Positions 2,269-45,155 of a stretch of 64,000 nt of DNA are shown piece after piece; the first letter of the stretch is position 1, and every line of letters starts with the position of its first letter. The position numbers and the translations under genes are program-made. This DNA comes from an uncultured Nitrososphaerales archaeon (lineage in GTDB: Archaea; Thermoproteota; Nitrososphaeria; Nitrososphaerales; Nitrososphaeraceae): positions 128,001-192,000 of the forward strand of contig CAVOHZ010000008.1 of the NCBI GenBank assembly GCA_963695855.1, given 5' to 3'. Below the pieces are notes generated by a model. The model searched no databases. It saw nothing but the letters and a program-made list of their open reading frames with translations, and was not told where the DNA came from.

Positions 2269-2312
2269 GGACCATAATTTAGGTCACATTTGTTTCAAAT
2301 CCCACTGGCCCC
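2269..2312 (+). repeat. Recombination-site family, B-type left site (B1)
   Basis: GGACCATAATTTAGGTCACATTTGTTTCAAATCCCACTGGCCCC; similar to 21043, 31306, 35952, 44901. Confidence 0.85.
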
Positions 2313-2498
2313 ATACAGTATAAGGGGTCAGTTGAATTATTAAAGTTTTATTACAGTAGACAGAATGGTAATTGAAAGATATTATTACAATAACAGAAGT
2401 TTTACATTATAACATTTACATGAAATAGAATATTGTCAATTACAGATATAGAACAAAACAATCCAAATAAGACAAATTTCATTTGAAAAATGGATTCT

Positions 2499-2531
2499 GT
2501 AGGATTTGAACCCTTCAATAAAGTGGGACCA
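2499..2531 (-). repeat. Recombination-site family, A-type right site (A1)
   Basis: Reverse complement TGGTCCCACTTTATTGAAGGGTTCAAATCCTAC. Confidence 0.9.
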
Positions 2532-2559
2532 TCTAACGTATAATGTTGATATAAAAATT

Positions 2560-3355
2560 TAACAATAATTGTAGAAAATTACATAAGAAAAAAAACAGAA
2601 TACACATTGATAGAACATAAGACAAAGAAGAAAGCAATTAACACATATCAACCAATACAATGTGTTTTAGAAATTCACCGTCTATTACACAAATGGGGTT
2701 TCAAATCTAAAGTACCGCAAAAAAGGTTTGTAAATACTGCCTCAGCAAATGACAAAATGAAATTCAAAAAAGAGTAAAACAGATTCTAGCCAATTTAAAA
2801 TCAGACTGGTGGACTGTACTTGTACAGGATGAATCCATCTTTGTATATGATTATCTGATAAGAAGAAAGAAATGGATTTCTAAATGCAAACGTCCCAAAA
2901 TAACTGTAACAGGTTCCAGAAAAAGAACAATTGTATTTCGCTGTCTATTCTTTAGACGTAAACAACTATTCAAACAATATGATAAATTTAACAGCAAGAC
3001 GTTTGTTGATTATCTAAATAAAACAGGTACAGAAAGAAAGAAAGATTTGGTAAAATTGCAATTTTTGTTGATAGAGCAACACCACACTGTTCAAAGATAA
3101 CAAGAAAGAGAGTTTCTTGATGCGAATAAAGATACTATCAGATTAGAATATTTTCCTGTTGGATCTCCAGAATTTGATGCAGTAGAAGAATGTTGGAGAC
3201 AGGAGGGTAAGTATCATATACTTTCTACTTATTATTCTACATTTGATTTTCTAATAGATACAATTTAGTATTATTATAGGACTAGAGGATTTAATCTGGA
3301 TATTGTGAAATATCTGATGAGAATAATAGATTAGCGAGATTATGTTAGTCAGTAT
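2560..3355 (+). mobile_element. IS630-family transposase remnant (multiply frameshifted)
   Basis: Fragments read QDESIFVY, FVDRATPH, LEYFPVGSPEFDAVEECWRQ (IS630 DDE motifs); boundaries approximate. Confidence 0.7.
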
Positions 3356-3452
3356 AGTAAAGAAATTAATTCTTCTTGTAAATAATTGGAATGTTAGAAT
3401 AGTTTAAAATCCTTAGAGACCATATATTACCATTATCATGCAGGCCTAGAAA

Positions 3453-4949
3453 ATGAATGAAAATAATGGTTTCTCCAATTCCGATAATGGAACAGAATTA
3501 AAATGTTCATTGTGTAAAGAACCCCTGCGTAATGAAAAAGATTGGGAAATGACTAAAGAAGTAATAGATGGTTCTACATACTTTTTTCATACTCATAAAT
3601 GTTTTAACGTATACAAGAGATTGGAGGACTTTTATGGTAAAAATATTAAAAATTTTAATATTAAAAATTTTATTGGAAATACACAATTTGTTTTTGATAC
3701 TTTCTGGGATAAAGCCATTCCTACTTCAGATGAAATTCAAGAAATAAAAAAAAATAATAATGAATCCATTAAACCATCCCTCAAAGTAATTGAGAACCCT
3801 GAAGAAGCAATAAGAACTGCTATTAATCTTGTTCAATCTGCAGAGGATGAAGTATTACTACTTTTTTCTTCAGCAAACGGATTTTATAGGAGAATGGTAT
3901 TGGGAGATGGTTTTCTTACTTTACAAAGATTACAAGATATGACCAAAGGTAACATAAAATTAAGAATTCTAACACCTTTTGATAAAAAGATTGTTGATGC
4001 AGCTAGCAAATTAATGGCTAAAGGAGTACATATTAAGTATTTACCAGAAACACTGTATTTAACAGTCACATTTTTGATAGTGGACAGGAAATTCTCTATG
4101 ACAGCCGAACTAGCAAACGATTATACAGAAATTCCTGCTGAATCGCTAGGGCTCTCAACCTTCTCTAATAGTAAAGCAACAGTATTATACTATATTTCTA
4201 TGTTTGAGAACTTGTGGAAACAGTCAGACCTTTATGAAAAGGCGGAAAATCTCTATGAGAAATTAAAAAAAACAAACGAAATACAAATACAATTTATTAA
4301 AGAAACAGCACATGAGATTGGAAATCCAACCCAGTCTATTTTAGGCCTAGCAGAAGTTATACTTTCTAACAAAAACCTTGACGTTGGTCATATAGATGAT
4401 TTAATCAAAATAATTATAAAGAATGCAAAAAAAATTAAGTTACTTACAGATAATATATTAGAGGCTGCCCGTATTGAAAGTCACCTTTTATCTCTTGAGA
4501 TGGAAGAATTTGATCTTGTAGAGTTAGTAAAAGATTTACTAAAAGATCTGAATAACCAAATTCAAAATAAAAAGATTAGTTTAATTTTAAAATGCAAAGA
4601 AGATTCAATTTTGCTAGTTGCAGATAAATTGCGTTTAAACCAAGTTTTTTTAAACATTATCAATAATGCTGTAAATGTTTCACAAGCAGGAGAAATTATT
4701 GTATTTTTAGAAAGACAATACAAAAACACGGTATTGGTAAGAATAACAGATAAAGGGCCAGGAATTTCATCAAATATAAAGGATACACTCTTTACTAAAT
4801 TTGTAACAGGCTCAAAATCAGGATCTGGTCTAGGTCTCTACATTTGCAAAAATATTATAGAAAAACATGGTGGAAAAATATGGGCTGAGAATAATCAGAA
4901 CAAAGGAGCAAATTTTAATTTTATTATACCTATTACATCTAAGCAGTAA
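3453..4949 (+). CDS. Sensor histidine kinase (N-terminal TRASH/YHS-like CxxC...C, PLD/TrmB-like middle, HisKA + HATPase)
   Basis: H-box TAHEIGNP, N-box NIINNA, G1 DKGPGI, G2 GSGLGLYIC; CSLC...FHTHKC; FLIVDRK. Confidence 0.92.
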   Translation: MNENNGFSNSDNGTELKCSLCKEPLRNEKDWEMTKEVIDGSTYFFHTHKCFNVYKRLEDFYGKNIKNFNIKNFIGNTQFVFDTFWDKAIPTSDEIQEIKKNNNESIKPSLKVIENPEEAIRTAINLVQSAEDEVLLLFSSANGFYRRMVLGDGFLTLQRLQDMTKGNIKLRILTPFDKKIVDAASKLMAKGVHIKYLPETLYLTVTFLIVDRKFSMTAELANDYTEIPAESLGLSTFSNSKATVLYYISMFENLWKQSDLYEKAENLYEKLKKTNEIQIQFIKETAHEIGNPTQSILGLAEVILSNKNLDVGHIDDLIKIIIKNAKKIKLLTDNILEAARIESHLLSLEMEEFDLVELVKDLLKDLNNQIQNKKISLILKCKEDSILLVADKLRLNQVFLNIINNAVNVSQAGEIIVFLERQYKNTVLVRITDKGPGISSNIKDTLFTKFVTGSKSGSGLGLYICKNIIEKHGGKIWAENNQNKGANFNFIIPITSKQ

Positions 4950-9956: not shown

Positions 9957-9963
9957 TTATATG

Positions 9964-29065: not shown

Positions 29066-29087
29066 ATCAGGATTAAAAGTGGGTTGT

Positions 29088-29475: not shown

Positions 29476-30252
29476 TTATTTTCGCATAGAAGAGAGGAAA
29501 TCGTTTTTTTCTTTAATAATCGGAAGATCCAATATTTCTTTAATAATCTCAATATGTTTATCAGGATTTTTATAAATCGAATTTAGTTTTTTATACAACA
29601 TGTTTGGATCAATTTTTATCCCACTCTTTCGTGATGCTCTCTTAAATGACCGATCAGAAATAACAATCCAATCATAATGGGTTGGAAGACTTGTTTTCGC
29701 TAAATTAGCGAATGATATTAACTTTGGTTTTTCCCTTAAATATTCCTGAATTTCAGCCTCCTTGACACCATAGTGAGAATAAAGTGATTCGTTTATCCGA
29801 GAAATTTTCTTATTAGTTGCATCAAGTTCTTCCCTTGCTTTTTTAATATAAGTAGGGATATCTTCTATGTTTAACTGATATTTCTTTTCAAATTGTAATA
29901 TTTTATTAATTTCAGTAAGAAACTTATCGTGCTCTATTACTAATCTAAAACTTTCTTTATCGGTAGATTCTAGAAAATTCTCAAAGAATGGACAAGTTAA
30001 ACTCAATTTATTTATTTTATTATATAGTCGAACTCCGGAAATTACATCAGAAAATCCTAAATTGTAACTCTTAAATTTTTTTGCAATCTCTCGTATGTAT
30101 GAAAAAATTTCATCATTTCTTGATGCCTCTGATGTTATTGTCGATATTGTTCCCACACTAACACCCAGCATCTTGCTAATTTCCGGGATTGAATATCCTT
30201 CCAAATATTTTCTAATACTATCAGATTTTATTACAGGAGGAATGGCCCGCAT
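29476..30252 (-). CDS. HTH DNA-binding / coiled-coil protein, mobile-element type
   Basis: N-terminal YLEGYSIPEISKMLGVSVGTISTI HTH. Confidence 0.75.
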   Translation of the reverse strand: MRAIPPVIKSDSIRKYLEGYSIPEISKMLGVSVGTISTITSEASRNDEIFSYIREIAKKFKSYNLGFSDVISGVRLYNKINKLSLTCPFFENFLESTDKESFRLVIEHDKFLTEINKILQFEKKYQLNIEDIPTYIKKAREELDATNKKISRINESLYSHYGVKEAEIQEYLREKPKLISFANLAKTSLPTHYDWIVISDRSFKRASRKSGIKIDPNMLYKKLNSIYKNPDKHIEIIKEILDLPIIKEKNDFLSSMRK

Positions 30253-30562
30253 TTAAAAGAGCTTAAAAAATTGGCTTAAAAGGTTTGCTCTATTTAGCTA
30301 ATTTTCTCATATTAGAGACTTCCCTTGTAGAATGCGATATAGATTCATTATCATTTATACCGTTACAAAAAATTTGACAAATATATGAAAAATCTATAAC
30401 AATTTAAACTTCTATTACTTCAAATTAATTGATTTGTCGGATAGTATTCTGAGTTAGATAATCGATTATGGTTAATTGTGAAGTTTCAATTATCTTCATT
30501 GAATATAAGTAAAATTCAATTACTCTATCTAGTATCACTCTAATATGAGCACAAAACGGGCC

Positions 30563-30683
30563 ATTTGAAAGCTATTTGAAAGGTATTTGAAAACAATTAG
30601 AAAACAATTTGAAAACAATTTGAAAACAATCTGAAAACAATCTGAATACCATTAAATAATGATTTGAAAGGTATTTGAAAGAA
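30563..30683. repeat. 11 x 11-bp degenerate tandem array (ATTTGAAAACA), iteron-like
   Basis: Units ATTTGAAAGCT, ATTTGAAAGGT, ATTTGAAAACA, ATTAGAAAACA... in exact 11-bp register. Confidence 0.85.
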
Positions 30684-30905
30684 TTTAACGGGTTTAAAAT
30701 TGAGTAGAATGAGCTCCCAGTATTATAAATAATGATAATCCATTCCGTTTTATCATTCTTAAATCAAATCAATCGATAAAATCTAATCATAAGTAATCAT
30801 CAAAAAAAAGATTCAGTTCTATCTTTTAAAATACTGCATTACCATTTAAATTAGACTCTTCTATTATTCTGTAGAAAGATAAAAGAATAACCTAATAGTT
30901 GTAAC

Positions 30906-31121
30906 TCATTCATCTTTTGAATCAAAAATTTTTTTTATTTCTTCATTTTGTTGTTTTACAATATGATCATCATCTTCCTCCTCAAATAAAAAAGGAAACG
31001 ATCTCCTCTCCTCTTGGGTTATAAATTTCTTAAATCTTCTTACTCGTTTTAAGTCTTCTAAATAATCACTTCTACAGATAGGATCTCCTGGATCTCGTAT
31101 ATGCATTTCACAGTACTCCAA
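30906..31121 (-). CDS. Small hypothetical protein, possibly truncated
   Basis: 71 aa charged ORF. Confidence 0.35.
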   Translation of the reverse strand: MEYCEMHIRDPGDPICRSDYLEDLKRVRRFKKFITQEERRSFPFLFEEEDDDHIVKQQNEEIKKIFDSKDE

Positions 31122-31124
31122 AAT

Positions 31125-31200
31125 CTGGAGTTATGGTAGATAGTAAAGATAATCTGTATTTGCCTGATACATATAATCAACGTACACAACAATTTAAGTT
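31125..31200 (+). pseudogene. Single NHL-repeat fragment
   Basis: Reads GVMVDSKDNLYLPDTYNQRTQQF. Confidence 0.5.
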
Positions 31201-31305
31201 ATCACAACATTGGCAATTCAAAATCTGAAAATGATATTGAATGAGTCAGAATAATAGCTAAAATGATATTTATAAAAACAAATTAATTTAATAAAATTTT
31301 ATTGT

Positions 31306-31350
31306 GGGTCCAAAATAAAGGACATATTCGTTTCACATCCCACTGGCCCC
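31306..31350 (+). repeat. Recombination-site family, B-type left site (B3)
   Basis: GGGTCCAAAATAAAGGACATATTCGTTTCACATCCCACTGGCCCC, then ATTGAACTCT shared with 44949. Confidence 0.8.
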
Positions 31351-31756
31351 ATTGAACTCTCAGTTCCAATTCTATATTTAATAGAATTCAAGAAGTAATA
31401 AAAATTAATAAATAATCAAATAATAAACAAAAAGGATAAAATCCCTAATTATTAAACAAAATAAATAGTTTATATAAAAAATAAGATATTATATTGAAAA
31501 AAATTCAGAATTACAATTTAGCTTTCATATGTAAAAAATGTATATTATTAGAATGCAATTTAAAATTTCTATCAATTGTCATTATATATCTTAAACAAAT
31601 GAAATCTAATAGATAAAACATATAGAATATATACACATTAAAAAGTAACATTTCTATTCAAATTTATCAATGAAGACAAACTTCACATTGATAAGAAATA
31701 TAGAGAAAAAGATCTTTAGTAAGAAAAAAAGTTTATTATGGAAAAAATATTTCTCA

Positions 31757-34423
31757 TTATTGTAGATTAAATGGATTCACCATGGAAGGTAGGCGAGAAA
31801 GTAGATCCTTAGGTATCATATCATTGGATGGTTGAGTCTTCTTAATTGGATTGAGTTCGGCAGTACTCACAACTTCTGGAGTAAATACCTGAATTCTGAA
31901 ATTGCCAGAGTCAACAATAAAAGGTTTACCATCATTGTCTACTGTTACGTGTTCTGGTTCTGCAAGTTGACCATCTGCTGAACCTTCTTTTTCTGAACCA
32001 AATTTTGTCAGATAATTACCTTCAGAATCCCATACCTGTACAACTGGTCTAATATTGTTATTTATGAGAAATACCCTACCTTCACTATCAACATCTAAGT
32101 GTTCTAAGAACATTAGCATTTCACCATCTCCTGAACCTTCTTTTCCCCATTTCTTTATGAATTTTCCATTTGGGTCGAACTTTTGTATATATGGCTGGAA
32201 GCCAGAACTGACGTAAACATTTCTATCTGGACCTACATCAATAGCGTGAGGATGGTCAAATTGACCATCTCCTGTACCTTTACTTCCCCATTGTAGTATA
32301 AAATTAAGGTTCTTGTCTAACTTTACAATTCTATTATTTCCGGTATCTGTGATATACAGATCGCCGTTTGTAAAGTCGAATGCCAAATCTTCAGGCATAA
32401 CAAAGTTCTTACCGTTTATACTTTTCAATTCGGTAATAAAGACTCCATCGTTGGTTAGTTTTTGAATTCTATTGTTCTCTCTATCAGAGACATATATGTT
32501 ATTGTTGCTATCATGGGCAATGCTATATGGAACGTTGAATTGTCCTGGACCTGAACCAGGACCACCAAATTTCGATAAGAACACACCTTCATGTGTGAAC
32601 TTTTGTATATCACTTCTAACTCTATCAGGTACAAAGACATTTCCAGAGGAGTCAAAAGAAACATCATGAGGGTCCTGAAACTGACCATTTCCGTTACCTT
32701 TTGTTCCAAATTTATAGGCAAATTTAAAGTTGAGTGGAGGTGGTGGTTGAGGACACCCTTCATCTATTAAAATGTCACCATCATTATCAATTCCGTCTCC
32801 ACATATCTCTGGAGTAGGTAGGTTATCAAAGGAGTTACTAAATACCAATCCGCTAGTTGCAAAGAAGTCATCATTCATCAAATTGGTAATCTCTGTGTTA
32901 TTAAGAGCTCTGTTCCAGACACCTACTTCATCAAGCTGACCTATGAAAAAGTCCTCTGTCAAAGACTGAGAGTTACCTGCTATTCTTAAGGGCTTATTTC
33001 CAGTATTATCAGGATTAGAGGTAGTACTTAGTGAACCTATCTGTACACCATCAACAAAGAGTCTAACAATATTGTTATTATTATCAAACGTGACGACACC
33101 ATGATGCCATTGGCCATCATTGTAGGTCTTTGTAGAAGTTACATATTTGTTGGAACCACCAGTGGTCTCAAATCCTCCCTGCAATGTTTCAGAAGGAGTA
33201 AACCATATTCCATAGTTTTGGTTCAAACCTGCACTTTCTGACCCAAGACCTCCTTTGTTCACCATAACTCCTTCATCATCCCAGCCGCCTGTTGTTTTGA
33301 ACCAAGTAGCAACTGTAAACGATGAAAGTCTAAGGTTGGAAGCATCAGGAACATCTAGTTTATTTGAACTAGTTGCAGTAAAGGATGGTGCATAATGGTA
33401 GCCAGTAGTAGTCTGACAATTTGGGTCTGCTACATCTTTTAATCCATCACGATCATCATCTAGTCCATTATCACATATCTCAGGTACAGATAGACAATCT
33501 AGATCTTCAGCATCTATCTTTCCATCACGATCATCATCAAGTCCATTATCGCATATCTCAAGTACAGATAGACAATCTAGATCTTCAGCATCTATCTTTC
33601 CATCACGATCATCATCAAGTCCATTATCGCATATCTCAAGTACAGATAGACAATCTAGATCTTCAGCATCTATCTTTCCATCACGATCATTATCTATATT
33701 GTCATTACATATTTCAGGGGTTGGAGTAACAAAAGAATTGCTGTATACCAATCCACTTGATGGAAATTGACCAGTATTCATCAAATTGGTAATCTCTGTG
33801 TTATTAAGAGCTCTGTTCCAGACACCTACTTCATCAAGCTGACCTATGAAAAAGTCCTCTGTCAAAGACTGAGAGTTACCTGCTATTCTTAAGGGCTTAT
33901 TTCCAGTATTATCAGGATTAGAGGTAGTACTTAGTGAACCTATCTGTACACCATCAACAAAGAATCTAACAATATTGTTATTATTATCAAACGTGACGAC
34001 ACCATGATGCCATTGGCCATCATTGTAGGTCTTTGTAGAAGTTACATATTTGTTGGAACCACCAGTGGTCTCAAATCCTCCCTGCAATGTTTCAGAAGGA
34101 GTAAACCATATTCCATAGTTTTGGTTCAAACCTGCACTTTCTGACCCAAGACCTCCTTTGTTCACCATAACTCCTTCATCATCCCAGCCGCCTGTTGTTT
34201 TGAACCAAGTAGCAACTGTAAACGATGAAAGTCTAAGGTTGGAAGCATCAGGAACATCTAGTTTATTTGAACTAGTTGCAGTAAAGGATGGTGCATAATT
34301 ATAAGTGGCCGCAAAAGCATAATTTTCATATGTAACAGTGAAAATCATAATAGAAAGCAACGTTAAAAGAAAAATACAACATAAAGAAATTATAAAATTC
34401 ATATTAAAAATTTTATTTATCAT
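31757..34423 (-). CDS. Secreted LamG-(Cys/Asp repeat)-LamG-NHL beta-propeller protein
   Basis: Signal peptide; two LamG domains (FTVATWFK, WHHGVVTFD, LDEVGVWNRAL); EICDNGLDDDRDG repeats; six NHL repeats. Confidence 0.92.
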   Translation of the reverse strand: MINKIFNMNFIISLCCIFLLTLLSIMIFTVTYENYAFAATYNYAPSFTATSSNKLDVPDASNLRLSSFTVATWFKTTGGWDDEGVMVNKGGLGSESAGLNQNYGIWFTPSETLQGGFETTGGSNKYVTSTKTYNDGQWHHGVVTFDNNNNIVRFFVDGVQIGSLSTTSNPDNTGNKPLRIAGNSQSLTEDFFIGQLDEVGVWNRALNNTEITNLMNTGQFPSSGLVYSNSFVTPTPEICNDNIDNDRDGKIDAEDLDCLSVLEICDNGLDDDRDGKIDAEDLDCLSVLEICDNGLDDDRDGKIDAEDLDCLSVPEICDNGLDDDRDGLKDVADPNCQTTTGYHYAPSFTATSSNKLDVPDASNLRLSSFTVATWFKTTGGWDDEGVMVNKGGLGSESAGLNQNYGIWFTPSETLQGGFETTGGSNKYVTSTKTYNDGQWHHGVVTFDNNNNIVRLFVDGVQIGSLSTTSNPDNTGNKPLRIAGNSQSLTEDFFIGQLDEVGVWNRALNNTEITNLMNDDFFATSGLVFSNSFDNLPTPEICGDGIDNDGDILIDEGCPQPPPPLNFKFAYKFGTKGNGNGQFQDPHDVSFDSSGNVFVPDRVRSDIQKFTHEGVFLSKFGGPGSGPGQFNVPYSIAHDSNNNIYVSDRENNRIQKLTNDGVFITELKSINGKNFVMPEDLAFDFTNGDLYITDTGNNRIVKLDKNLNFILQWGSKGTGDGQFDHPHAIDVGPDRNVYVSSGFQPYIQKFDPNGKFIKKWGKEGSGDGEMLMFLEHLDVDSEGRVFLINNNIRPVVQVWDSEGNYLTKFGSEKEGSADGQLAEPEHVTVDNDGKPFIVDSGNFRIQVFTPEVVSTAELNPIKKTQPSNDMIPKDLLSRLPSMVNPFNLQ

Positions 34424-35005
34424 TGTGTTTATTCACTTGTGCTTTTTGATGGCATTATCATCATCAGATTGAATAGTCTATTCTTAGAAGCTTTCATTTT
34501 ATTATAAAGACTGACAAGTAAAAATAGGATCAATAATTTTCTAAACCTGTAAACACAATAGAATACAATAAAAAACAACGTAGCAGATTGCTGTGACGTT
34601 GCATACATCATTGAGTAAAAATTAGGGAGTAATAAATTATTTGTACATGCATGCATATGCTTCTTATGACTATCAATTTCAAATTATTTTAAATACCTAA
34701 GCGTAATATGTTATGAAACATCCTCTTATTGTTTAATATACTAAAAATATTATTGTATAAGTTGATATAAAATCTATACAAAAAATCGATCTTACAATTC
34801 CAGACTGTTTTCCATTACTGTTTATAATTTTCAAATATATATATGAATTGAAATTAGTAGTATATACCTAATTGATAAACATATTTAATTCTACAAATTG
34901 AATATATATAATAATAAACATATTTAATTCTACAAATTGAATATATATAATATATTTAAGAATCTGTCAGAACCTAAATATATTTAAGTCAGATCTGAAT
35001 ATATA

Positions 35006-35503
35006 TTGAAGAACTTGAACATATCAATTGTTTTCGCTTCAGTATTCCTGACAATAAGTTTTCTTTTTTTAATAACTCTTTTCTCCCCACTAACTGCAAA
35101 TGCACAAAAGATAATTGGGAACTATGAAGATAATTTTAAATACTATGAGAAATTGAGTCTAGGCAATAAATACACGATACAGAAAACCTGTGGAGATTCA
35201 TTTTTGTCACAAAATAAAGGAGGACCATTATCCCAAGATATAGTCTCAGATCTCAACAGGTATTTATCTCAAAATCCCATAGCAATAGGTGATGAGCCCC
35301 TAACAAAAGTAAAAAATGTTGATGGATTATGTATACTTATTAACTTAGTAAAATCACAAGGTAATGAGGAAAGAATAGCTAATGCGGAACAAATAAGAAA
35401 TATCCTCAATGCCGCTTTACAAGAAAAACAGAATCAGCTTGTAACAAACGATCTAATCATCAATTTATTACAGTTAGGTCTAATTGAACCTTCTGATGAC
35501 TAA
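35006..35503 (+). CDS. Secreted hypothetical protein
   Basis: Signal peptide ending TANA; 165 aa. Confidence 0.65.
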   Translation: MKNLNISIVFASVFLTISFLFLITLFSPLTANAQKIIGNYEDNFKYYEKLSLGNKYTIQKTCGDSFLSQNKGGPLSQDIVSDLNRYLSQNPIAIGDEPLTKVKNVDGLCILINLVKSQGNEERIANAEQIRNILNAALQEKQNQLVTNDLIINLLQLGLIEPSDD

Positions 35504-35951
35504 ATTCTAGGATAATATTTTTTTATTTTTCTTTAAATTTGATTGATAATATCCAATGATTTAGATTAGTTTCAATGAATATTTTAGTTTCCTCCATAAA
35601 TATATCTATTAATATATTTTTTAGTAGAAAGGTAAAGAAAAGATTATTAATAATATATGATGTTACATAAAAGAAGGATATTATTTTGATATTAAAGATA
35701 ATATAAAGAAAAAGATTTGTGTAGCACTAGCAAAGAGATCTTTATGTAAATACAATACGAACTTTTTTATTAATAAAATTACATAGGAATTATTAAAAGA
35801 TATAAAATAAAAATAGGCAGTTTATTAAATATATCAGAAGAAACATTATATATTATAAATAATTACATATAATATTTTTTCAATAATAATACAAGCATCG
35901 TAAGGCAAATTTTAAAGCAATAATCACTTAAATCTCTAGGTATTCAAAAGT

Positions 35952-36018
35952 AATTGGTTTCACTTTATAGAATGGAACCGAAATTTAAGTCAAATTTGTT
36001 TCACATCCCACTGGCCCC
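35952..36018 (+). repeat. Recombination-site family, complete B-type site (B4) containing the A left arm and spacer
   Basis: AATTGGTTTCACTTTATAGAATGGAACCGAAATTTAAGTCAAATTTGTTTCACATCCCACTGGCCCC. Confidence 0.88.
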
Positions 36019-36127
36019 ATATAGCGTAAGGGGACAGTTAAAGTATAAGAAGATTATACCAGACAGAACAACAACAAACTATCTTTTATTTTCAATTTAC
36101 ATTTAAATAGATATATTCGTATGGTAG

Positions 36128-36164
36128 TCGAGTCCCACTCCCGGCGCTCAACTCGCGGAGTCTA
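36128..36164 (+). repeat. tRNA-3'-like att fragment, family 2, copy 1
   Basis: TCGAGTCCCACTCCCGGCGCTCAACTCGCGGAGTCTA; direct repeat of 39176-39216. Confidence 0.75.
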
Positions 36165-36412
36165 CTAAGATTATGTCATTTTCAAATATTTTAGTTGTAA
36201 GTATTATCAGATTCAATTTTTCTGCCATTCTTGGCATTTCAATATTCATTTAAAATAGTTTGCAACAGTCATATCTCTTCTTTTAATTAATTAATTAATC
36301 TATTACGCTAACGATATTCAATCAATAGAGGAGAGTTTGGTAAAGCAGTCAAGAAGGTATTAGCATTAGAATATTCGAATACAAATCTAACCACATATTT
36401 GTTTTTTATCTT

Positions 36413-36631
36413 TTATTTGATTTCAATAATTAATTCACATTTTACGTTCAACTTGGAATGATATTTTTCTATTGCTTCCTTGCTTGAAGCATCTAACATG
36501 TAATAACATAGGTCTGCATCTCGATTGAAGTAAGTGTTAATATTCCTAATCTCACCTCTTGTATGCGTTTTTACCAAACATTCTATCTGCGAGACTTTAT
36601 GGACATCAAGAAATACTGGCATATATCTCAC
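36413..36631 (-). CDS. DUF4242/SCO4226-like small protein
   Basis: MPVFLDVH...CYYMLDASSKEAIEKYH...CELIIEI. Confidence 0.7.
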   Translation of the reverse strand: MRYMPVFLDVHKVSQIECLVKTHTRGEIRNINTYFNRDADLCYYMLDASSKEAIEKYHSKLNVKCELIIEIK

Positions 36632-36723
36632 TAACTATAACTATGCAACAACTCTAATCAAGGTTAATGCTAGGTGATACAGGCAAGTAAAAGACATCGG
36701 AATGCAAAGTCTAATTCCACTAT

Positions 36724-37644
36724 TTATCCATAATTAACCTCTTCCTTTGGCGATATTTCGTGTAAACCCAGGTGTACTGCTTCTGGGTTCGAGTCCCACT
36801 CCCGGCGCGCGCCACATTCTATTTGAAATAGTCTGCCATTTAGAAATCTTGATACGGTTCTATTAAATTCCTCTACTTTCTCTACATGAGGATAATGACC
36901 ACACTCATCAAATATTACAAGTCTGGAATTGGGAGTTTTAAATTTTTCTGCATATCTTAGAGGCATTAGTTTATCATTTCTTCCCCAAATTATCAATGTA
37001 GGTGTATTAATATTTAGTCTATCAGCGAGCTGAGGATGATTTTTAAGTGATATTAAAGTAGACATGAAAGCAAACTTTGAATTACTCAGATTCATCCTCT
37101 TAATAAAATCTTGGATTGAATCTTCTGTAATCATACGCGGATCATACACCATCTCATAGTATGCTGTTGCCACATTATAGAACGTGGGATAGAGTGCAGC
37201 AGAAATATATTGGTTCAAAGCTGGTGTTATATGATTCATCATTCCAGCTGGCGATATTAAAACCAGTTTGTTTATATCTTTGGGAAATCTAATAGTATAT
37301 TCTAACGCTAAAAGTCCCCCAAACGAGGAACCCATAAGATGTAAATTATCAATCTCCATAATTTGAAGGACTCTTTGAATAAATTTTATAAAAAAATCCA
37401 TATTGTATTCTGCATGAGGTTTATCACTGTACCCAAAACCAATTATATCTGGTACTAATAGTCGATAAAATTTAGATAAAAATGGTATTATTTCTGACCA
37501 GCGGTCTAATGATCCTCCCAAGCCATGGAGCAGAAGCAGTGTTGATTTTTTTGGATTGCTATTCTTTTTACCGGTGTCTAGGTATCTAATTGAATAATCA
37601 TCAACTTTCATTGTCGCAATATCGCGGTCAATCAAACTATACAA
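36724..37644 (-). CDS. Alpha/beta-fold hydrolase
   Basis: LLHGLGG, PDIIGFGYSDKP, GSSFGG nucleophile, WGRND, CGHYPHVE. Confidence 0.92.
   Translation of the reverse strand: MYSLIDRDIATMKVDDYSIRYLDTGKKNSNPKKSTLLLLHGLGGSLDRWSEIIPFLSKFYRLLVPDIIGFGYSDKPHAEYNMDFFIKFIQRVLQIMEIDNLHLMGSSFGGLLALEYTIRFPKDINKLVLISPAGMMNHITPALNQYISAALYPTFYNVATAYYEMVYDPRMITEDSIQDFIKRMNLSNSKFAFMSTLISLKNHPQLADRLNINTPTLIIWGRNDKLMPLRYAEKFKTPNSRLVIFDECGHYPHVEKVEEFNRTVSRFLNGRLFQIECGARREWDSNPEAVHLGLHEISPKEEVNYG
36785..36808 (+). repeat. tRNA-3'-like fragment (T-loop + acceptor strand), family 2, copy 2
   Basis: GGGTTCGAGTCCCACTCCCGGCGC with no cognate 5' half upstream. Confidence 0.75.
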
Positions 37645-39369: not shown

Positions 39370-41031
39370 CTAATTTTTATTGATTTTTTCTTTATTTAAT
39401 AACTTATTAAATGATGATATAATTTTTTTAAAATCGTCTTTGGTAGCATTAGATTTAGCAAATTCTACTAGATCAGTAATTTTCAAAGATTCTCTAATAT
39501 CATCAATAGGATAATAATTATGTTTTTGTAGTAATCTTATTAATTCTTCACTAGTTATTTCTCTTTTAAGACCTGCATCATGGCTCAAAAATAATCTAAT
39601 TGCTTTGCCGGCAGTTCCAAAAGCTTCCTTGTATTCTCCTTTATCATAATACTGTTGAGCTTGTGATATTAGTTTTTTTGATTCAATAATATGCTCAAAG
39701 GATTTTAATTTTGGAATTGGAGATGAATCATTAATAGTAAATGTTTTTTTCTTTTTTAAGAATTTTTTGATTACAAAATAAATAGATACAATAGATATGA
39801 TAGCCACAGCCAATAGTATGAACAAAGTTAGATTAGATGAGTTAGAACTGTTATCTTCTAATGTAACGCGCTTTATCTCATCATTTTCAAAATTTGCTGT
39901 GATTTTTGCATTATCGTGTTTTTGATTCTCATATTGAAGTATTATATTAGTTTCATTTTCATTATCTTGAAAATTGATATCATTTTGAGAATATCCTTCT
40001 GTGACTAACTGATTATGAAATTGTTGAAATAGCGTATTTTGTTTTAATTTTTCTAAAAGTTTTTCTTGTTGATCTTGTGTTTGTTGTTTGAGCTCAGTTA
40101 TTGTTCCGTTTTTCATATTTCCTTGTAATGTAGCCCATTTCCCATCTGTATTTTTGTATTTCATATCAAAACTGCCAGTATCATTAGACAAAGGTTTCAA
40201 AATACTGTTTGTAATGTTATAACCATTTTCTAAGAGTTTTTGGTGTCTATTTAGAAAATTATTATTAGATAATAATTGCTTTTCAAACTCTTTTTTTATT
40301 TGTTCTTGTTGTTGTACCTGTTTTTGTATTTGTTGTTTTAATGCATTGCTGTCTTGAGATAATTGGTTGTTTTGAAGACGTTGTTGCTGATTTTGTGATG
40401 GATTTTGTTGATTTCCAAGTAGTTCATTTAGTCTTTGTTCCATCTGTTGTTCTTGTTGAGAAAATAAATCTTGTTGATTTCCAAGTAGTTCATTTAGTCT
40501 TTGTTCCATCTGTTGTTCTTGTTGAGAAAATAAATCTTGTTTTTGAGATTGCGTGTTTGGTTGCTGAGATTGCGTGTTTGGTCGAGAAGAGCTTTGTATT
40601 TTATTTTGTTGATTATTTTTTTGAGAAGCATCAGATACAAAGTGAATTATTATAGGACCTAGAGAAACAGTTCGATCTCCATTTTCATTATAATTAAAAT
40701 TTAGATTCATGACTAAATTAGAAGGAGCATCAGAAGTACCTAAATTCAAGTAAATTTTTTGGTTTTCTTCATTTATTACAAGAGATTTTGCTTCTGTATT
40801 AGAATTTGAGAATTGAACATTTCCCTGGCTGATTTGCTGTGTTATAGTGTATTGTAACATGCCAGAAATCTGTTTTCCATAAGTGCTGTTTATTTCAATT
40901 GGAATTATAGCCTGTGCGCCAATCTTAAAATAATATTCAGTTTGTTCAGTTGAGAACAAAATATCCTGTGCATAAACAGCTTGAAGGGAAGCTAGAAAAA
41001 TAAATAGGGATAATAAAACAAATACTTTCAT
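39370..41031 (-). CDS. Q-rich single-pass membrane protein of the MoxR/Bat operon
   Basis: Signal peptide, 22-aa tandem duplication, TM helix, C-terminal DLVEFAK (BatD/DUF4381-like). Confidence 0.75.
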   Translation of the reverse strand: MKVFVLLSLFIFLASLQAVYAQDILFSTEQTEYYFKIGAQAIIPIEINSTYGKQISGMLQYTITQQISQGNVQFSNSNTEAKSLVINEENQKIYLNLGTSDAPSNLVMNLNFNYNENGDRTVSLGPIIIHFVSDASQKNNQQNKIQSSSRPNTQSQQPNTQSQKQDLFSQQEQQMEQRLNELLGNQQDLFSQQEQQMEQRLNELLGNQQNPSQNQQQRLQNNQLSQDSNALKQQIQKQVQQQEQIKKEFEKQLLSNNNFLNRHQKLLENGYNITNSILKPLSNDTGSFDMKYKNTDGKWATLQGNMKNGTITELKQQTQDQQEKLLEKLKQNTLFQQFHNQLVTEGYSQNDINFQDNENETNIILQYENQKHDNAKITANFENDEIKRVTLEDNSSNSSNLTLFILLAVAIISIVSIYFVIKKFLKKKKTFTINDSSPIPKLKSFEHIIESKKLISQAQQYYDKGEYKEAFGTAGKAIRLFLSHDAGLKREITSEELIRLLQKHNYYPIDDIRESLKITDLVEFAKSNATKDDFKKIISSFNKLLNKEKINKN

Positions 41032-41978
41032 TGTATTATTCTACCTCTACCATATCTCAAATAGATCTGTAAAAAGAAAATACCAAGTGCAAATACAAAA
41101 AACCAATCTTTAATGTTGGTTTCTTCTTTTTCTCGTTTTATATCAGTACTGATATTTTGATAAATCTCATTTAATGTCTTAATATCAACAGACTTGAAAT
41201 ATTTGCCACCTGTCTGCTCTGCAATAGATCTGAGTGTATCTTCGTCTAGTTCTGCATATTGCGGTCTACCAAAAAAATCATAACCAAGAAGAGTTTTTCC
41301 TCCTGAACCAAGACCAATTGTGTAAACTTGAATATTGTTTGATTTTGCAAAAGATACGGCTTCTGATGGAGAGATTACTCCTGCATTACTTACTCCATCG
41401 CTGAGTAAAATCACAACTTTTTTCTTATTTTGAATAGAGGTTGCCATATCAATTCCCAGACTTAATCCATCACCAATAGCCGTTTCACCGTTTGTTTGAG
41501 CAATATTAGAGAGTTTTTCTATAACCTTGTCCTTATTTGGACTCAAATATGCTGCAGTAGTTGCACCTGTCCCAAATATTACAATTCCAGCATTATCTTT
41601 AGGAGGTAATGACTCCACAAGAATTTTTGCAGAATTTTTTGCAGCCTCAAGCCTGTCAGGTTTATAATCTGTAGCTTGCATACTGCCTGAAACATCAATC
41701 ACAAGCACTACATTTACTCCTTCTTTACTTTGTTCCAGCGGTATGTGTGGATTAGCAAATCCTATAATCATCAATCCAATTGTTACCAAAGATAGATAAA
41801 ATAGCCATAAATCTCTCCGAGATTTTCTTTTATTTCCTATCGCAGATTTAATAAATTCTAAATTACTGAATTTTATCGCTTCCTTTCTCTTTTTAGATAT
41901 TATTTTATAATATAGAAAATACAATCCAGGAATAACAAGAAGCGCAATTAAAACAATCTGAGAATCGAATCCGGCCAA
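41028..41978 (-). CDS. VWA domain membrane protein (BatA-like)
   Basis: MIDAS DVSGSM, TAIGDG, LLSDG; N- and C-terminal TMs. Confidence 0.92.
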   Translation of the reverse strand: MAGFDSQIVLIALLVIPGLYFLYYKIISKKRKEAIKFSNLEFIKSAIGNKRKSRRDLWLFYLSLVTIGLMIIGFANPHIPLEQSKEGVNVVLVIDVSGSMQATDYKPDRLEAAKNSAKILVESLPPKDNAGIVIFGTGATTAAYLSPNKDKVIEKLSNIAQTNGETAIGDGLSLGIDMATSIQNKKKVVILLSDGVSNAGVISPSEAVSFAKSNNIQVYTIGLGSGGKTLLGYDFFGRPQYAELDEDTLRSIAEQTGGKYFKSVDIKTLNEIYQNISTDIKREKEETNIKDWFFVFALGIFFLQIYLRYGRGRIIQ

Positions 41979-41983
41979 AATTA

Positions 41984-42859
41984 TTATCTCCTAATTCTTT
42001 TTTTAAAGAATTTTCTTAAGGGGGTCTCGTAATTTTCATCAGATAAAATCTTTATAAAATCTACTTTCAATTTTATTAGATTTAAAATCAATTGTGACTC
42101 GTTATTTGATACAATCTCTGTATATTTTGTTTGAAATAGGGGATCAGATGTATCAACAAGAATCTGTTCTCCTGTTTCTTCATCTTCAAGCTGGATTAAT
42201 CCTATTTTTGGAATTTCTTGTTCACGTACATCAGAGATTTTTAATATAATAACATCATGCTTTTTCCTCAATATTTTTAATGGTTTTAGATAATCATTGG
42301 AATCAAAAAAATCCGAAAGTATAAACAAAATACAGCGTTTTTTTAGAATTTGTGAGACTTGAACTAGTGCTGTTTTCAAGTTAGTAGTCTTTGATTTTGG
42401 TTGGAAAGAAATGATTGAGCTTAGAATTTGTAGAACATGTTTTTTCCCCTTTCTTGCAGGAATAAATCTTTCAATTTTATCAGTAAATAAAAAAATACCA
42501 ATATTATCATTATTTCTCAGTGCTGCAAACATCAAGCTTGCTACAATTTCTAAAGCTTTTCTTTTTTTAGGAATTTTATTTCCAAAACTTCCAGAACCGG
42601 AGATATCTAAAAGAAAATATACTTGCAGATCTCGTTCTTCAACATATTCTTTAACGTAAGGTTGATTGTATCTAGCAGTAACATTCCAATCTATAGAACG
42701 TATATCGTCTCCTGACCTATATTCTCGAATTTCTGAAAACTCAATGCCTTGTCCTTTAAACGTGGAGTGATAATTTCCAGTTAGTAATTCATTCACTAAA
42801 TATTTTGTAGAAATTTCTAGTTTTTTGATTTGTTTTAGAATTTCTTGTGTTTGGTTCAT
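41984..42859 (-). CDS. DUF58 family protein
   Basis: GIEFSEIREYRSGDDIRSIDWNVTAR, DISGS, SDF. Confidence 0.93.
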   Translation of the reverse strand: MNQTQEILKQIKKLEISTKYLVNELLTGNYHSTFKGQGIEFSEIREYRSGDDIRSIDWNVTARYNQPYVKEYVEERDLQVYFLLDISGSGSFGNKIPKKRKALEIVASLMFAALRNNDNIGIFLFTDKIERFIPARKGKKHVLQILSSIISFQPKSKTTNLKTALVQVSQILKKRCILFILSDFFDSNDYLKPLKILRKKHDVIILKISDVREQEIPKIGLIQLEDEETGEQILVDTSDPLFQTKYTEIVSNNESQLILNLIKLKVDFIKILSDENYETPLRKFFKKRIRR

Positions 42860-42889
42860 TGGATCACTTTTAGATGATTATAACAACAC

Positions 42890-43891
42890 CTAAGGGAGAG
42901 GAATTTTCTCGAGAATAGTTTTAATTATTTGATCACTAGTAATGTATTCAGCTTCTGCCTCATAGGTAAGAATAATTCTATGTCGTAGTACATCATAGGC
43001 AATATCTTGAATATCTTGTGGAATTACATATCCCCTTCCATTAAGAATTGCATTGGATTTTGCACCCACCGTGAGCCAGAGAGAAGCCCGGGGTGATGCA
43101 CCATACTCTATCTTGTTGTCAATATCAAGATCATAATCTTCTGGATGTCTTGTCGCGTCAACAATCTGTGCAACATATTCACGAATTTTTTGATCGGTAT
43201 AAATTCGGTGATTGAATTTTTGAATTTCTATTAATTTATCAGCAGAGATTGTTTTTTGTATTTTAACATCAATGCCTTCTGTGAATCTATGAATAATTTT
43301 TGATTCTTCATCTTTTCGAGGATACGAAATCAATAGTTTAAACATGAATCGATCAATTTGTGCTTCAGGTAGTTTGTAGGTACCTTCTGATTCAATAGGA
43401 TTTTGGGTAGCCATAACAAAAAATGGTTCCTTAAGTGGAAACGTCTCGCCTTGTATGGTTACTTGTTTTTCTTGCATTGCTTCTAACAATGCTGATTGGA
43501 CTTTTGGAGGTGCTCTGTTTATTTCATCTGCTAAAACAAAATTAGAAAAGATTGGTCCTTTTACTGTCCTAAATGAGGTAGAATTATGATCGTAAATTTT
43601 GGTTCCAATGATATCTGCAGGCAATAAATCAGGAGTGAATTGTAATCTCACAAAATTGGAATCAATGCATTCTGATAATGTCTTAATCAATAAAGTTTTG
43701 GCAAGACCTGGAACTCCCTCTAATAATACATGACCCTTTGACATCAACGCCAATATTAATTTGACAATGATTTTATCTTGACCTACAATTACTTTACTGA
43801 TCTCATTGTGTACATTAGAAAGAAGTTGGCAATATTGTTCGGCTTTCCGGTTTAGCTCTTCAACTTCTGGATTCAACATATCAGTCATCAT
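42890..43891 (-). CDS. moxR: MoxR family AAA+ ATPase
   Basis: GVPGLAKT Walker A, QFTPDLLPAD, DEINRAPPKVQSALLEAMQE, ATQNPIE. Confidence 0.95.
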   Translation of the reverse strand: MMTDMLNPEVEELNRKAEQYCQLLSNVHNEISKVIVGQDKIIVKLILALMSKGHVLLEGVPGLAKTLLIKTLSECIDSNFVRLQFTPDLLPADIIGTKIYDHNSTSFRTVKGPIFSNFVLADEINRAPPKVQSALLEAMQEKQVTIQGETFPLKEPFFVMATQNPIESEGTYKLPEAQIDRFMFKLLISYPRKDEESKIIHRFTEGIDVKIQKTISADKLIEIQKFNHRIYTDQKIREYVAQIVDATRHPEDYDLDIDNKIEYGASPRASLWLTVGAKSNAILNGRGYVIPQDIQDIAYDVLRHRIILTYEAEAEYITSDQIIKTILEKIPLP

Positions 43892-44037: not shown

Positions 44038-44080
44038 AACTGGTCCCACTTTATAGAAGGGTTCAAATCCCACTGGCCCC
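44038..44080 (+). repeat. Recombination-site family, A-type left site (A5), consensus copy
   Basis: AACTGGTCCCACTTTATAGAAGGGTTCAAATCCCACTGGCCCC. Confidence 0.93.
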
Positions 44081-44250
44081 GTTGTGATAATAGTTCTAAA
44101 ATTGGATTCACTAGAAAGAAAATAGGTGAATCAAAAAATAAAATGAAAATAGAACAGAGTTATGAAGAATCTAATGTATATTCATTATTTGAATATGATC
44201 AATTACTTTGCTTATGAATTATTAAATAATATCTTTATCTGATAAGTTTA

Positions 44251-44733
44251 GTGAAGGATAAGAATAACTTAGATAATAGAACTGCTTTAAATAAATATCA
44301 TCTTCCAGTACCAAAGAATTCCATTCAAAGAATTGATAGAAACACATCACCTGCTCATATAGGAAAGTTAAGAAATGCAATAGACTTTCTAGTTCCAGAA
44401 AATACCCCTGTATTAGCAGCAAGCGATGGAACAGTAACACTTGTTAATGATGACTCAATAATAGGTGGTCCAAGCGCTGCTTATTGGAACTTTTCTAATT
44501 TTATTTTAATTATGCATAAGAATAAAGAATGGTCAAGATATGATCATCTCAGATTTAATAGTTCTACTGTAAAAGAAGGACAAAAGGTTAAACAAGGACA
44601 GAAAATTGCGGAAGTAGGTATGACTGGTTATACATATATTCCGCATCTACATTTTCAAATCTCGATATTTGATGGTCCTAATATTTGGACAGATTTTGAC
44701 ACATTAATAGTTGAAGATTTTATAGATTCATAA
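44251..44733 (+). CDS. M23 family metallopeptidase
   Basis: H...AIDF, VLAASDGTV, YDHL, GMTG..YIPHLHF. Confidence 0.92.
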   Translation: MKDKNNLDNRTALNKYHLPVPKNSIQRIDRNTSPAHIGKLRNAIDFLVPENTPVLAASDGTVTLVNDDSIIGGPSAAYWNFSNFILIMHKNKEWSRYDHLRFNSSTVKEGQKVKQGQKIAEVGMTGYTYIPHLHFQISIFDGPNIWTDFDTLIVEDFIDS

Positions 44734-44900
44734 ATATTTAAGAAAAAAATACTTATATTTTTGAAAATGATTGAATATGAAAACGTGTTAGAGCTATTCT
44801 TTGATAAGGGTTATCGTTTAGATCTTTAATAAAAAATAAGTTACATAAATAAAGATTTTAGAATTAACGCATAAGATCCAAGATAGGTACAAAATTCTAG

Positions 44901-44948
44901 AATGAGACCAGAATCTGTGTTAAATTTGTTTTACAAACCACTGGCTCC
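44901..44948 (+). repeat. Recombination-site family, B-type left site (B5)
   Basis: AATGAGACCAGAATCTGTGTTAAATTTGTTTTACAAACCACTGGCTCC. Confidence 0.75.
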
Positions 44949-45120
44949 ATTGAACTCTGGGTTCTAATCCTATTTCTAGGAGAATTCATGAAACAGCAAT
45001 GTTACAAACTAGGAATTAATCTTTACTTTTTTTAATTATTTATTTATGAATCCATTAAGACAAAGAATTTTGAAATCCAATAATTATATTCAAAATAATT
45101 TTGTAACAACAAAGGATTCT

Positions 45121-45155
45121 GTAGGATTTGAACCCTTCTATAAAGTGAGACCAGT
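45121..45155 (-). repeat. Recombination-site family, A-type right site (A6)
   Basis: Reverse complement ACTGGTCTCACTTTATAGAAGGGTTCAAATCCTAC; inner flank GGATTCT shared with A1. Confidence 0.92.

Follow-up and report, generated by a model that had tools for sequence, protein, structure and literature searches.

Copies of a tRNA-like gene's 3′ end as probable integrase attachment sites in an ammonia-oxidising archaeon

What are short, dispersed, and uniformly polarised sites doing around a recombinase-like gene in an archaeal genome? The question is raised by a 64,000-nucleotide stretch from an uncultured member of the Nitrososphaeraceae (hereafter the window; positions 128001–192000 of contig C8 in genome G000, such that a C8 coordinate equals the window position plus 128000). 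A reading made from the sequence alone had noticed eleven such sites here and proposed a candidate cassette system served by one tyrosine recombinase. The genome comprises 3.55 Mb in 11 contigs at ~31% G+C and, because it contains an archaeal amoA gene, its host is an ammonia-oxidising archaeon; other G-numbers denote genomes of relatives, and L-numbers loci fetched from G000 or from those relatives. Below, we argue that the sites are fairly likely to be attachment (att) sites of genus-specific, tRNA-targeting tyrosine integrases, and the region a tandem stack of decayed elements.

Sites, core, and polarity

Six of the eleven sites had been described as matches to a 36-mer, here termed A (A′ where inverted). 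All six were recovered with zero to three mismatches (2499−, 23368−, 27694+, 29088−, 44038+, and 45121−), and 100 dinucleotide-preserving shuffles returned no match. The 36-mer is a true conservation island: when 61 distinct copies drawn from several genomes were compared, the most frequent base had a mean share of 0.93 within it and of 0.52 and 0.51 in the 20-nt flanks. The remaining five sites, termed B, likewise exist, but not quite as first delimited. The consensus initially given fitted two of them within three mismatches (2269 and 35975); a profile built from genome-wide copies recovered all five (2269, E = 1.5e-13; 21043, 7.6e-12; 31306, 4e-13; 35974, 7.2e-14; 44906, 1e-5), and the start formerly placed at 35952 takes in a weak remnant of an A arm ahead of the B site proper (C8:163953–163975). 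As the sequence-only reading had it, no site overlaps an open reading frame (ORF) of at least 80 aa, inverted pairs span 1430, 2361, 266, and 256 bp, and all seven plus-strand sites bear a TGGCCCC-like 7-mer (the tail), degenerate at 21043 (CCACTGCCCCC) and 44901 (CCACTGGCTCC), while TGGCCCC is missing from all four minus-strand sites. In the tail position, three of the latter have a degenerate 7-mer (AGAATCC at 2499, ACAACCC at 29088, and AGAATCC at 45121), and the fourth, at 23368, has a conserved 165-nt body of another kind.

The core of the plus-strand sites, TTCA(A/C)ATCCCACTGGCCCCA, is the T-loop-to-discriminator end of a gene on the plus strand at C8:91508–91603, 36.4 kb upstream of the window. 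Scanning G000 for the core gave 37 matches at ≤3 mismatches, one of which is this gene, predicted as a cloverleaf by ARAGORN and closing with GTGGGTTCAAATCCCACTGGCCCCA. In tRNA terms, GGGTTCAAATCCC is the T-arm, and CCCAC-TGGCCCC-A comprises the 3′ T-stem, the 3′ acceptor strand, and the discriminator; identity between the shared core (TTCA(A/C)AT-CCCAC-TGGCCCC-A) and the 3′ end of the gene extends over 23–25 nt. We call the gene tRNA-like because its ARAGORN fold, which includes a long variable arm, has an 8-nt anticodon loop and because it falls below the Rfam tRNA threshold. In the window itself, TTCA(A/C)ATCCCACTGGCCCC occurs five times with zero or one mismatch, on the plus strand only. 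Neither ARAGORN nor Rfam reported an RNA gene in the window; the anchor lies outside it. Weak genome-wide matches to the A profile, moreover, coincide with T-arms of ordinary tRNA genes. What had been put forward as a cassette system thus consists of copies of a tRNA 3′ end in the manner of ordinary att cores.

To the left of the core we found three alternatives—the tRNA body, a 24-nt A arm (AACTGGTCCCACTTTATAGAAGGG), and a 26-nt B arm (GGGACCAAAATTTAGGTCAAATTTGT)—and to its right, past CCCCA, five sequence classes. Class i leads into an integrase of type 1 (the pseudogene in the window), class iv into an integrase of type 2, which is 59–60% identical, and class v into a decayed gene (C8:124.5 kb, 126.8 kb, and elsewhere), of which a 145-aa piece matched no Pfam family and L003 held no intact copy. 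Classes ii and iii are non-coding bodies of ~180 bp ending in an inverted A site. Counted by junction in G000, the A arm goes with class i once, with class ii twice, and with classes iii, iv, and v once each; the B arm goes with class ii twice, with classes iii and iv five times each, and with class v twice; and a tRNA-type T-stem goes with class i twice. Paralogous copies have 90 to 980 nt in common on the left and diverge directly past CCCCAT(T), and module copies in other genomes start to match at the T-loop regardless of the arm that precedes it. Such free re-assortment at a short common core is a signature of site-specific recombination. TTCAAAT goes mostly with the A arm and TTCACAT mostly with the B arm (four exceptions); most exchanges would therefore have taken place rightward of T-loop base 5, and the crossover most likely falls between this base and the one past the discriminator. 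With classes i and iv on the same core, the modules belong to more than one integrase type and not, as had been supposed, to a single recombinase.

Starting at the anchor gene, a core scan with arm and class labels delimits an island of ~82 kb (C8:91.5–173.2 kb) that reaches window position 45156. All 12 of its tail-bearing cores lie on the plus strand, in the direction of the tRNA-like gene, the last at window 44038. Four more arm-bearing cores whose tail is lost or altered are likewise on plus, and the five tail-less A sites are all on minus. Under random orientation, agreement of 11 of 11 sites with the tRNA would have a probability of 2^-11. Smaller clusters are uniform too (C3:348.8–371 kb, 3/3 on plus; C3:449.9–452 kb, 3/3 on minus). 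Site-specific accretion in one orientation, which the sequence-only reading had preferred over random insertion, is hence borne out locally, but across G000 as a whole sites occur in both orientations. Direct core repeats bound a 1.06-kb element (C8:383843–382788) as well as the stack overall, but not those units that close with the inverted A′. The content of the island—same-direction repeats, integrase-less units, and variation from the tRNA 3′ end onward—fits tandem accretion.

Relatives place a synteny break at the same point. The 3.6 kb upstream of the tRNA-like gene are 95% identical in G014 and 92% in G019, and in four of five relatives homology stops at the tRNA 3′ end (query base 3604), which agrees with the earlier expectation that sites would mark synteny breakpoints. 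Directly 3′ of the gene, G000 carries class i sequence as at window 27737, followed by an integrase remnant. In G019 the gene is followed by a full class iii module up to and including its A′, in G014 by no more than the first ~85–110 nt of class iii, and in G017 by ~25 nt of that class.

Within the window, the labelled junctions follow one another from left to right (A arms and A′ sites by 36-mer match, B arms by profile, intact tails by tail scan). A B arm, core, and tail at 2269–2312 (+; GGACCATAATTTAGGTCACATTTGT-TTCAAAT-CCCAC-TGGCCCC) precede the body of an integrase-less class iii module of ~266 bp (2313–2498, +), which A′ closes at 2499–2534 (−). The next B arm and core, with degenerate tail (21043–21086, +), continue into ~35 nt of class iv and then unrelated DNA. 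At 27694–27736 (+), A arm, core, and tail are followed by class i, the lead-in to the type 1 integrase pseudogene (27768–29065, +), and A′ at 29088–29123 (−) lies 22 nt past the integrase stop. B arm, core, and tail at 31306–31350 (+) form the right end of a ~1-kb non-coding repeat (30376–31353; 94% identity to C8:383743–382785), with class ii next; at 35953–36018 (+), the A-arm remnant is fused to B arm, core, and tail, with class iii next. A arm, core, and tail at 44038–44080 (+) open into the class iv lead-in and the truncated start of a type 2 integrase. Finally, a degenerate B arm, core, and tail at 44906–44948 (+; ACCACTGGCTCC) lead into a class ii module body, and the A′ that closes this ~256-bp module (45121–45156, −) is the last recognisable site of the island.

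As to the anchor itself, the gene and its flank are conserved across the genus, the anticodon loop reading UUCAACUU in G000, G014, and G019 and UUUGAUUU in G017 (loci L078, L079, and L080). Three identities are conceivable: a functional if unusual tRNA, a tRNA whose small intron goes unrecognised, or a pseudo-tRNA retained as a docking site. A ~40-nt copy of its 3′ half, from the variable arm onward, is found at C6:~177450–177552 and runs into the start of class i; no cloverleaf was found at this partial copy, which is probably an att site stranded by an old integration.

An integrase family at tRNA ends

The integrase gene in the window is a pseudogene with two in-frame stops and one frameshift. 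Intact genes encoding 406–486 aa are found in relatives, where sites do lie beside intact homologues, as had been anticipated. All of 16 intact homologues have R171, H299, R302, and Y332, and at least 90% of them also have H324; the catalytic motifs are also legible in the translated window pseudogene. An alignment profile and a fold search were needed because single-sequence and family searches were uninformative: single-sequence phmmer against PDB returned noise only, the window fragments and the closest intact homologue matched no significant Pfam or PHROGs family, and PF00589 stayed below threshold in two homologues (24.9 and 21.7 bits; cut-off, 27.1). The profile search of PDB found archaeal XerA best (5hxy, E = 5.5e-7; 4a8e, 6.5e-5). 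Using an AlphaFold2 model (mean pLDDT 78.8), Foldseek gave 52 matches at E ≤ 1e-3, and those listed are all tyrosine recombinases (XerA, Cre, IntI4, XerH, lambda Int, and the Tn1549 integrase, 6en0). The enzyme is a divergent tyrosine recombinase, in agreement with the link drawn by the sequence-only reading. Membership in the pNOB8-type family was rejected, since HGFR(K) (H299 and R302) replaces YxxR, giving HxxR instead of R...YxxR...Y. In the model (m41f3ea7e8a5c), residues 356–425 are predicted to form a single long C-terminal helix, K/E-rich and coiled-coil-like; these ~70 residues lie beyond the catalytic tyrosine, and the matched solved recombinases are mostly shorter (268–353 residues).

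In relatives, homologues lie 40–60 nt past real tRNA genes of several kinds, with Rfam tRNA scores of 69.4 bits at L036 and 40 bits at L051 and five further loci recognised by eye (L045, L047, L032, L033, and L055). Directly past the tRNA-like gene, G000 has only integrase remnants. An integrase directly 3′ of a tRNA is the classical attL–int arrangement.

To place the family among relatives, we examined a further 24 genomes from the genus along with 16 genomes representing as many other families of the order; many of the genus assemblies are incomplete and the genomes mutually related, so that presence counts carry no statistical claim. The A pattern occurred in 21 of the 24 genomes, at 1 to 42 copies each, and in none of the 16 outside the genus, and the reversed pattern used as a control was absent everywhere. 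The upper figure comes from G010 (6.3 Mb), in which two contigs carry the same locus at 98.9% identity (L089 versus L095); this assembly is probably a mixture of two strains, and its 42 A sites are then not the load of one genome. Integrase homologues at E ≤ 1e-20 were present in 16 of the 25 genomes of the genus, and several genomes have A sites and no integrase match at this threshold (e.g., G001, G002, G005, G008, and G021). The A-site/integrase family is genus-wide.

Under the reading we favour, an element would recombine conservatively within the ~23-nt identity block of the tRNA-like 3′ end and leave the gene restored. On the attL side, the integrase gene would come to lie immediately 3′ of the core; on the attR side, the element would end in its own A or B arm and a regenerated core. 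Every core restored in this way would be a fresh target, as is the core of the tRNA itself; elements re-targeting such cores would therefore stack head to tail downstream of the tRNA, in a single orientation, and at each internal junction the arm left by one element would be followed by the core and then by the lead-in of its successor. We infer this order of events from the sequence, with the arms as putative integrase-binding sequences. The stack would hold at least 10 units over 82 kb, inserted by integrases of at least two verified types sharing one core, which would have decayed since.

The 'empty' modules of ~250 bp would be integration modules that lost their integrase by deletion. For one class iii module this origin is documented: the last ~55 nt of the window module, beside A′, match the final codons of the intact integrase gene at L081 and its 3′ flank at a local alignment score of 36, which none of 300 shuffles reached. 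When the same module was aligned with the window pseudogene, 16 of 300 shuffles reached the score. The module in G019 gave a borderline result against the integrase 3′ end (7 of 300 shuffles), and for the class ii module the match was unsupported (55–71 of 300); for small modules other than the first, deletion would be the presumed origin.

Inverted sites and competing explanations

Several observations weigh against this reading. Campbell-type integration predicts direct repeats only, and is thus at odds with the inverted A′. This site—an inverted A arm and core with a degenerate 7-mer in the place of the tail—lies 22–35 nt past the stop of type 1 integrases in the window, at C8:119.3 kb, and at L081, L083, and L016. 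Core-to-A′ units are sharp-edged in at least four unrelated contexts (L028 versus L043, 1002–2430; L028 versus the window), many copies of ~230–265 bp in other genomes end at the same base, and the core-to-A′ unit looks self-contained. The A site at 23368 is situated between two genes that are adjacent also in G017, where they have no A between them; some A-bearing repeats are therefore small intergenic insertions rather than element ends, and the 2.36-kb cargo block that had been described with this site as its right-hand border does not hold up as a discrete module. Stacking by integration leaves both the inverted A′ and the genus-wide small A-bearing repeats unexplained.

Further points on the same side concern the enzymes and the borders of the island. 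Among the close copies of the window integrase in G000, none is intact (the others are broken or truncated; more distant homologues lay outside this check), and for two intact integrases of relatives the surrounding 8.4 and 20 kb contain no second site. The anchor gene is itself irregular, with its 8-nt anticodon loop and sub-threshold Rfam score, and other clusters open with an A arm instead of a tRNA gene. The far end of the island, i.e., a final core followed by the original downstream flank of the tRNA, was not identified: searching window 45160–52000 against five relatives gave matches mostly to multi-copy elements. A search for empty sites (L057 and L058 across the genus, L059 and L061 in five relatives) produced no clean filled/empty pair, because the flanks were themselves repeats or non-syntenic. 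Integration and excision by these enzymes are predicted activities, and we obtained no excision or junction evidence. Soil and sediment metagenome contigs (Logan) contain parts of the stretch, at a best share of words of 0.61, and four metagenome contig sets covering window 21000–37000 consisted of short contigs broken at repeats; the single-contig joints 23257→29085 and 27881→35964 have sides of 26–30 letters and were not counted as evidence.

An inverted att copy past the integrase is not a general architecture of the wider family, and we rejected that proposal: across 16 loci, the sole clear inverted match (16 nt) was L028's own A′. Of 12 loci with other tRNA specificities, 11 lacked an inverted copy of their own att and the twelfth, L051, had a 14-nt T-arm-like match. 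Upstream of the intact integrase at L043/L081 (G010:C226; ~1270–1312), an inverted T-arm-like copy stands ahead of the core, and the left junction there, GTGGGATACGAACC-GA-GGATTCCAATCCCAC, is a small palindrome.

Of the alternatives, a tyrosine-recombinase transposon survives best, though we regard it as unlikely. The mobile unit would then run from A and tail through the integrase to A′, with terminal inverted repeats of 36–43 bp that mimic the 3′ half of a tRNA. It would be cut by the integrase at or close to both outer ends, as elements of the Tn916/Tn1549 type are, form a circle, and insert into A/T-rich or tRNA-like DNA; the ~250-bp modules would be derivatives resembling miniature inverted-repeat transposable elements (MITEs), and arrays would build up as copies carry target-like sequence. 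Such an element would account for the inverted 36-mers that bound the integrase (27694/29123) and small modules (C3:348814–349067; L020), for ends that are both sharp in several contexts, and for the degenerate 7-nt tail at tail-less ends, which would extend the inverted repeat to ~43 bp. The ~230–265-bp copies in many genomes of the genus, the A-rich outer flanks, and the appearance of the Tn1549 integrase among the fold matches point the same way, as does an excess of the 9-mer CTGGYCCCA (61 occurrences in G000 against 6 expected from base composition). However, units whose left arm is a real tRNA (G000 and G019) or a B arm lack the left 'repeat' but are otherwise the same, and left arms re-assort at the core and not at the outer end. 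Moreover, no abutted A′/A junction and no target duplication flanking A pairs was seen, a clear A′ is missing from two of the four type 1 integrases that are intact or nearly so, and integrases at other tRNAs are without an inverted own att in 11 of the 12 loci mentioned above.

A slimmer chance attaches to a two-tier platform, in which integrase modules bracketed by inverted tRNA mimics would occupy the tRNA end and single-gene units, such as the sulfide:quinone-reductase-like gene, would dock at A sites. For this second tier, the A site past the integrase and the A-bearing repeats of ~200 bp would serve as places at which units are inserted, excised, inverted, or swapped from one element to another. 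Were this true, tRNA-end mimics would have given rise to a cassette exchange of the integron or shufflon kind, for which the texts we consulted offered no archaeal description.

Weaker again, and to our mind doubtful, is an integron-like cassette platform that would use A (with X body) as the attC-like 3′ site of single-gene units, A′ as docking site, and A × A exchange as its route. X body denotes the conserved ~165-nt sequence that continues A in place of the tail at 20 of the 65 A sites listed (G000 plus fetched loci, one place having been fetched twice). In relatives, A sites with an X body flank one- or two-gene units in direct order, and direct A repeats 1.2–3.3 kb apart enclose 1–2 genes. 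In the five intervals listed (L014, L015, the second of L016, L017, and L024) all genes are antisense to A, as judged from ORFs of ≥90 aa and with L018, L019, L023, and one ORF-less L016 interval set aside; in L016, an integrase remnant is followed by three A sites in direct order. A unit with a sulfide:quinone-reductase-like gene, present at 8 loci in 7 genomes, starts at the base directly past A (between ..CCAGTT and AATATTTTTT) at 5 of the 8 loci and in 3 upstream contexts; in G016 it starts at the same base without an A site. Yet in G017 the same upstream gene stands beside the reductase-like gene without any A site. An attC-like hairpin at A or the X body was rejected, as they fold no better than shuffles: X body plus A had z = +1.19, with 176 of 200 shuffles at least as good. 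Nor was an intact integrase seen beside an array, circular cassettes are not evidenced, and the window has no run of direct A sites.

Passive intergenic repeats of tRNA-derived REP- or SINE-like, regulatory, or structural nature, spread by some other route and tied to the integrase only by shared tRNA-end ancestry, are very improbable: while all sites are intergenic, the 36-mer is 93% conserved across species and its flanks are not, A contains TTTATA, and some genomes have A sites without an integrase match, three of the five classes lead into genes (i and iv into integrases or remnants, v into the decayed gene), local polarity and anchoring at a tRNA 3′ end are as recombination predicts, and no Rfam family in the window or significant fold of A or A′ (z = +0.37 and +0.35) was found.

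A DDE-transposase insertion sequence (IS) or MITE as the origin of the A sites was rejected, there being no flanking duplication and no transposase inside A...A′ units, in which the integrase is the only protein seen. The DDE_Tnp_1 gene that does lie between outward-facing A sites (25667–26560) is part of a separate IS. Directly ahead of it is a ~460-bp repeat (25144–25606) with more than 50 genome copies at 66–91% identity, and both interrupt the reductase-like unit.

Two short motifs recur at the borders. CTGGYCCCA belongs to the tail, marks A at its outer end, and returns at the X body's far end, while B opens with its complement; speculatively, this 9-mer may be a core-type binding motif of the integrase. 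The tail and the first class iii bases together form a 9-bp inverted repeat with an 11-nt spacer, ACTGGCCCC-N11-GGGG(T/A)CAGT, at window 2300–2332 and 36003–36040 and also directly past the tRNA in G014 and G019 (L079 and L080). Its DNA fold has a z of −2.6 to −2.7, with 2 of 200 shuffles folding as well; a pair of core-type binding sites is one possible role, a signal for processing or termination another.

Accessory genes and known systems

The island carries accessory genes for a histidine kinase, a sulfide:quinone-reductase-like protein, a MoxR-DUF58-VWA operon, an M23 peptidase, and a LamG/NHL protein. The reductase-like unit is abutted by the A site and X body at 23200–23403 (−; 36-mer at 23368–23403), and its gene (23638–24825, +) encodes a sulfide:quinone oxidoreductase-like protein of 395 aa with the Pfam families Pyr_redox_2 and FCSD_central. 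On the minus strand, 31757–34423 encodes an 888-aa protein with Laminin_G_3 and NHL repeats, and 39370–43891 an operon of a MoxR-type AAA ATPase (AAA_3), a DUF58 protein, and a VWA/BatA protein, along with a 553-aa protein without a Pfam family. The Peptidase_M23 gene (44251–44733, +; Pfam) encodes 160 aa. A similar NHL-repeat gene is found at C10:908 kb, where it follows a truncated integrase beside tRNA-Val.

A soil ammonia oxidiser with an 82-kb, tRNA-anchored hotspot that collects accessory genes bears on how slow-growing ammonia-oxidising archaea acquire niche genes. The repeat family has also become tractable, with a 23-nt core, two arm types, and intact integrases of 426–438 aa in relatives. 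To our knowledge, genetic tools are lacking for Nitrososphaeria; if A′ and the small A-bearing repeats are active recombination sites, the family would offer a compact natural toolkit for site-specific insertion in this class.

Overall, this is a known general kind of system in a new host lineage, with an unusually dense stack and with A′ and miniature repeats that it leaves unexplained. We found no description of the A/B-site integrase family in the literature searched; it may be in print. Integrons and pdif modules combine a tyrosine recombinase with short sites at module borders, uniform polarity, and some inverted pairs, and the present sites resemble them in each of these respects, inverted pairs enclosing some of the modules. 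Unlike integrons, they show no attC-like hairpin fold and no attI/Pc arrangement; integron-type arrays are short and occur in relatives (L014–L017 and L024; in L016 beside an integrase remnant), with none in the window. Unlike pdif modules, whose inverted 28-bp dif-like sites are acted on by the Xer proteins of the host, they are copies of a tRNA end with an element-borne recombinase. For the pdif analogy drawn earlier, the inverted pairs are the sole basis; no Xer-type 11-6-11 site is evident, none having been looked for. Elements of the Tn916/Tn1549 type have imperfect inverted end repeats and insert without a long homologous core. The ends here share the imperfect inverted repeats (compare the fold match 6en0), and insertion would likewise need no long homologous core, but re-assortment on the left takes place at a core identical with the tRNA, a real tRNA can form the left end, and neither coupling sequences nor joined-end circles were seen.

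Contrary to the earlier supposition that no thaumarchaeal system of this sort had been described, tRNA-targeted integration and re-use of sites in arrays are in print: in Thaumarchaeota, tRNA genes are the main targets (39 integrations, 57%), and tyrosine recombinases re-use sites to form arrays, of which tandem pairs are described (PMC6563490). Archaeal type II integrases, which follow the lambda paradigm, keep their gene intact on integration, and the motifs given are YxxR for the pNOB8 type and KxxR for the SSV1 type (PMC8371274). The present family is like these in its tRNA target, its intact integrase gene, and its formation of arrays (PMC6563490, PMC8371274). It differs from the tandem pairs of the thaumarchaeal survey in forming a stack of a dozen units (PMC6563490), and from both motif types in having HxxR (H299 and R302; PMC8371274). 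The term 'MITE' does not occur in the survey (PMC6563490).

The closest scheme of events is found in streptococcal accretion of integrative conjugative and mobilizable elements and their cis-mobilizable relatives (ICE/IME-CIME), in which elements integrate at the 3′ end of a target, the integrase is lost with att kept, and a newcomer enters a regenerated att (PMC5704250). The same three steps would apply here, in tandems alike; unlike there, the host is an archaeon and no conjugation or mobilisation genes were seen. The layout recalls the ssrA islands of Dehalococcoides: downstream of a small-RNA gene, and no more than 100 kb from it, several islands are arrayed in tandem (PMC3146451). These islands are bounded by direct repeats of the gene's 3′ end with an extra conserved motif upstream that is absent from the gene, their insertion point is inferred to lie in the T-loop, the integration module adjoins attL, and many islands have no integration module and are read as cis-mobilizable remnants (PMC3146451). 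They use a serine recombinase and a tmRNA target, in contrast to the tyrosine recombinase and tRNA-like gene described here (PMC3146451). The units here, in an archaeal host, are often only 0.25–4 kb, with an inverted arm and core past the integrase. What the two have in common is the tandem layout, the 3′-end repeats, an extra motif comparable to the A and B arms, and units without an integrase (PMC3146451).

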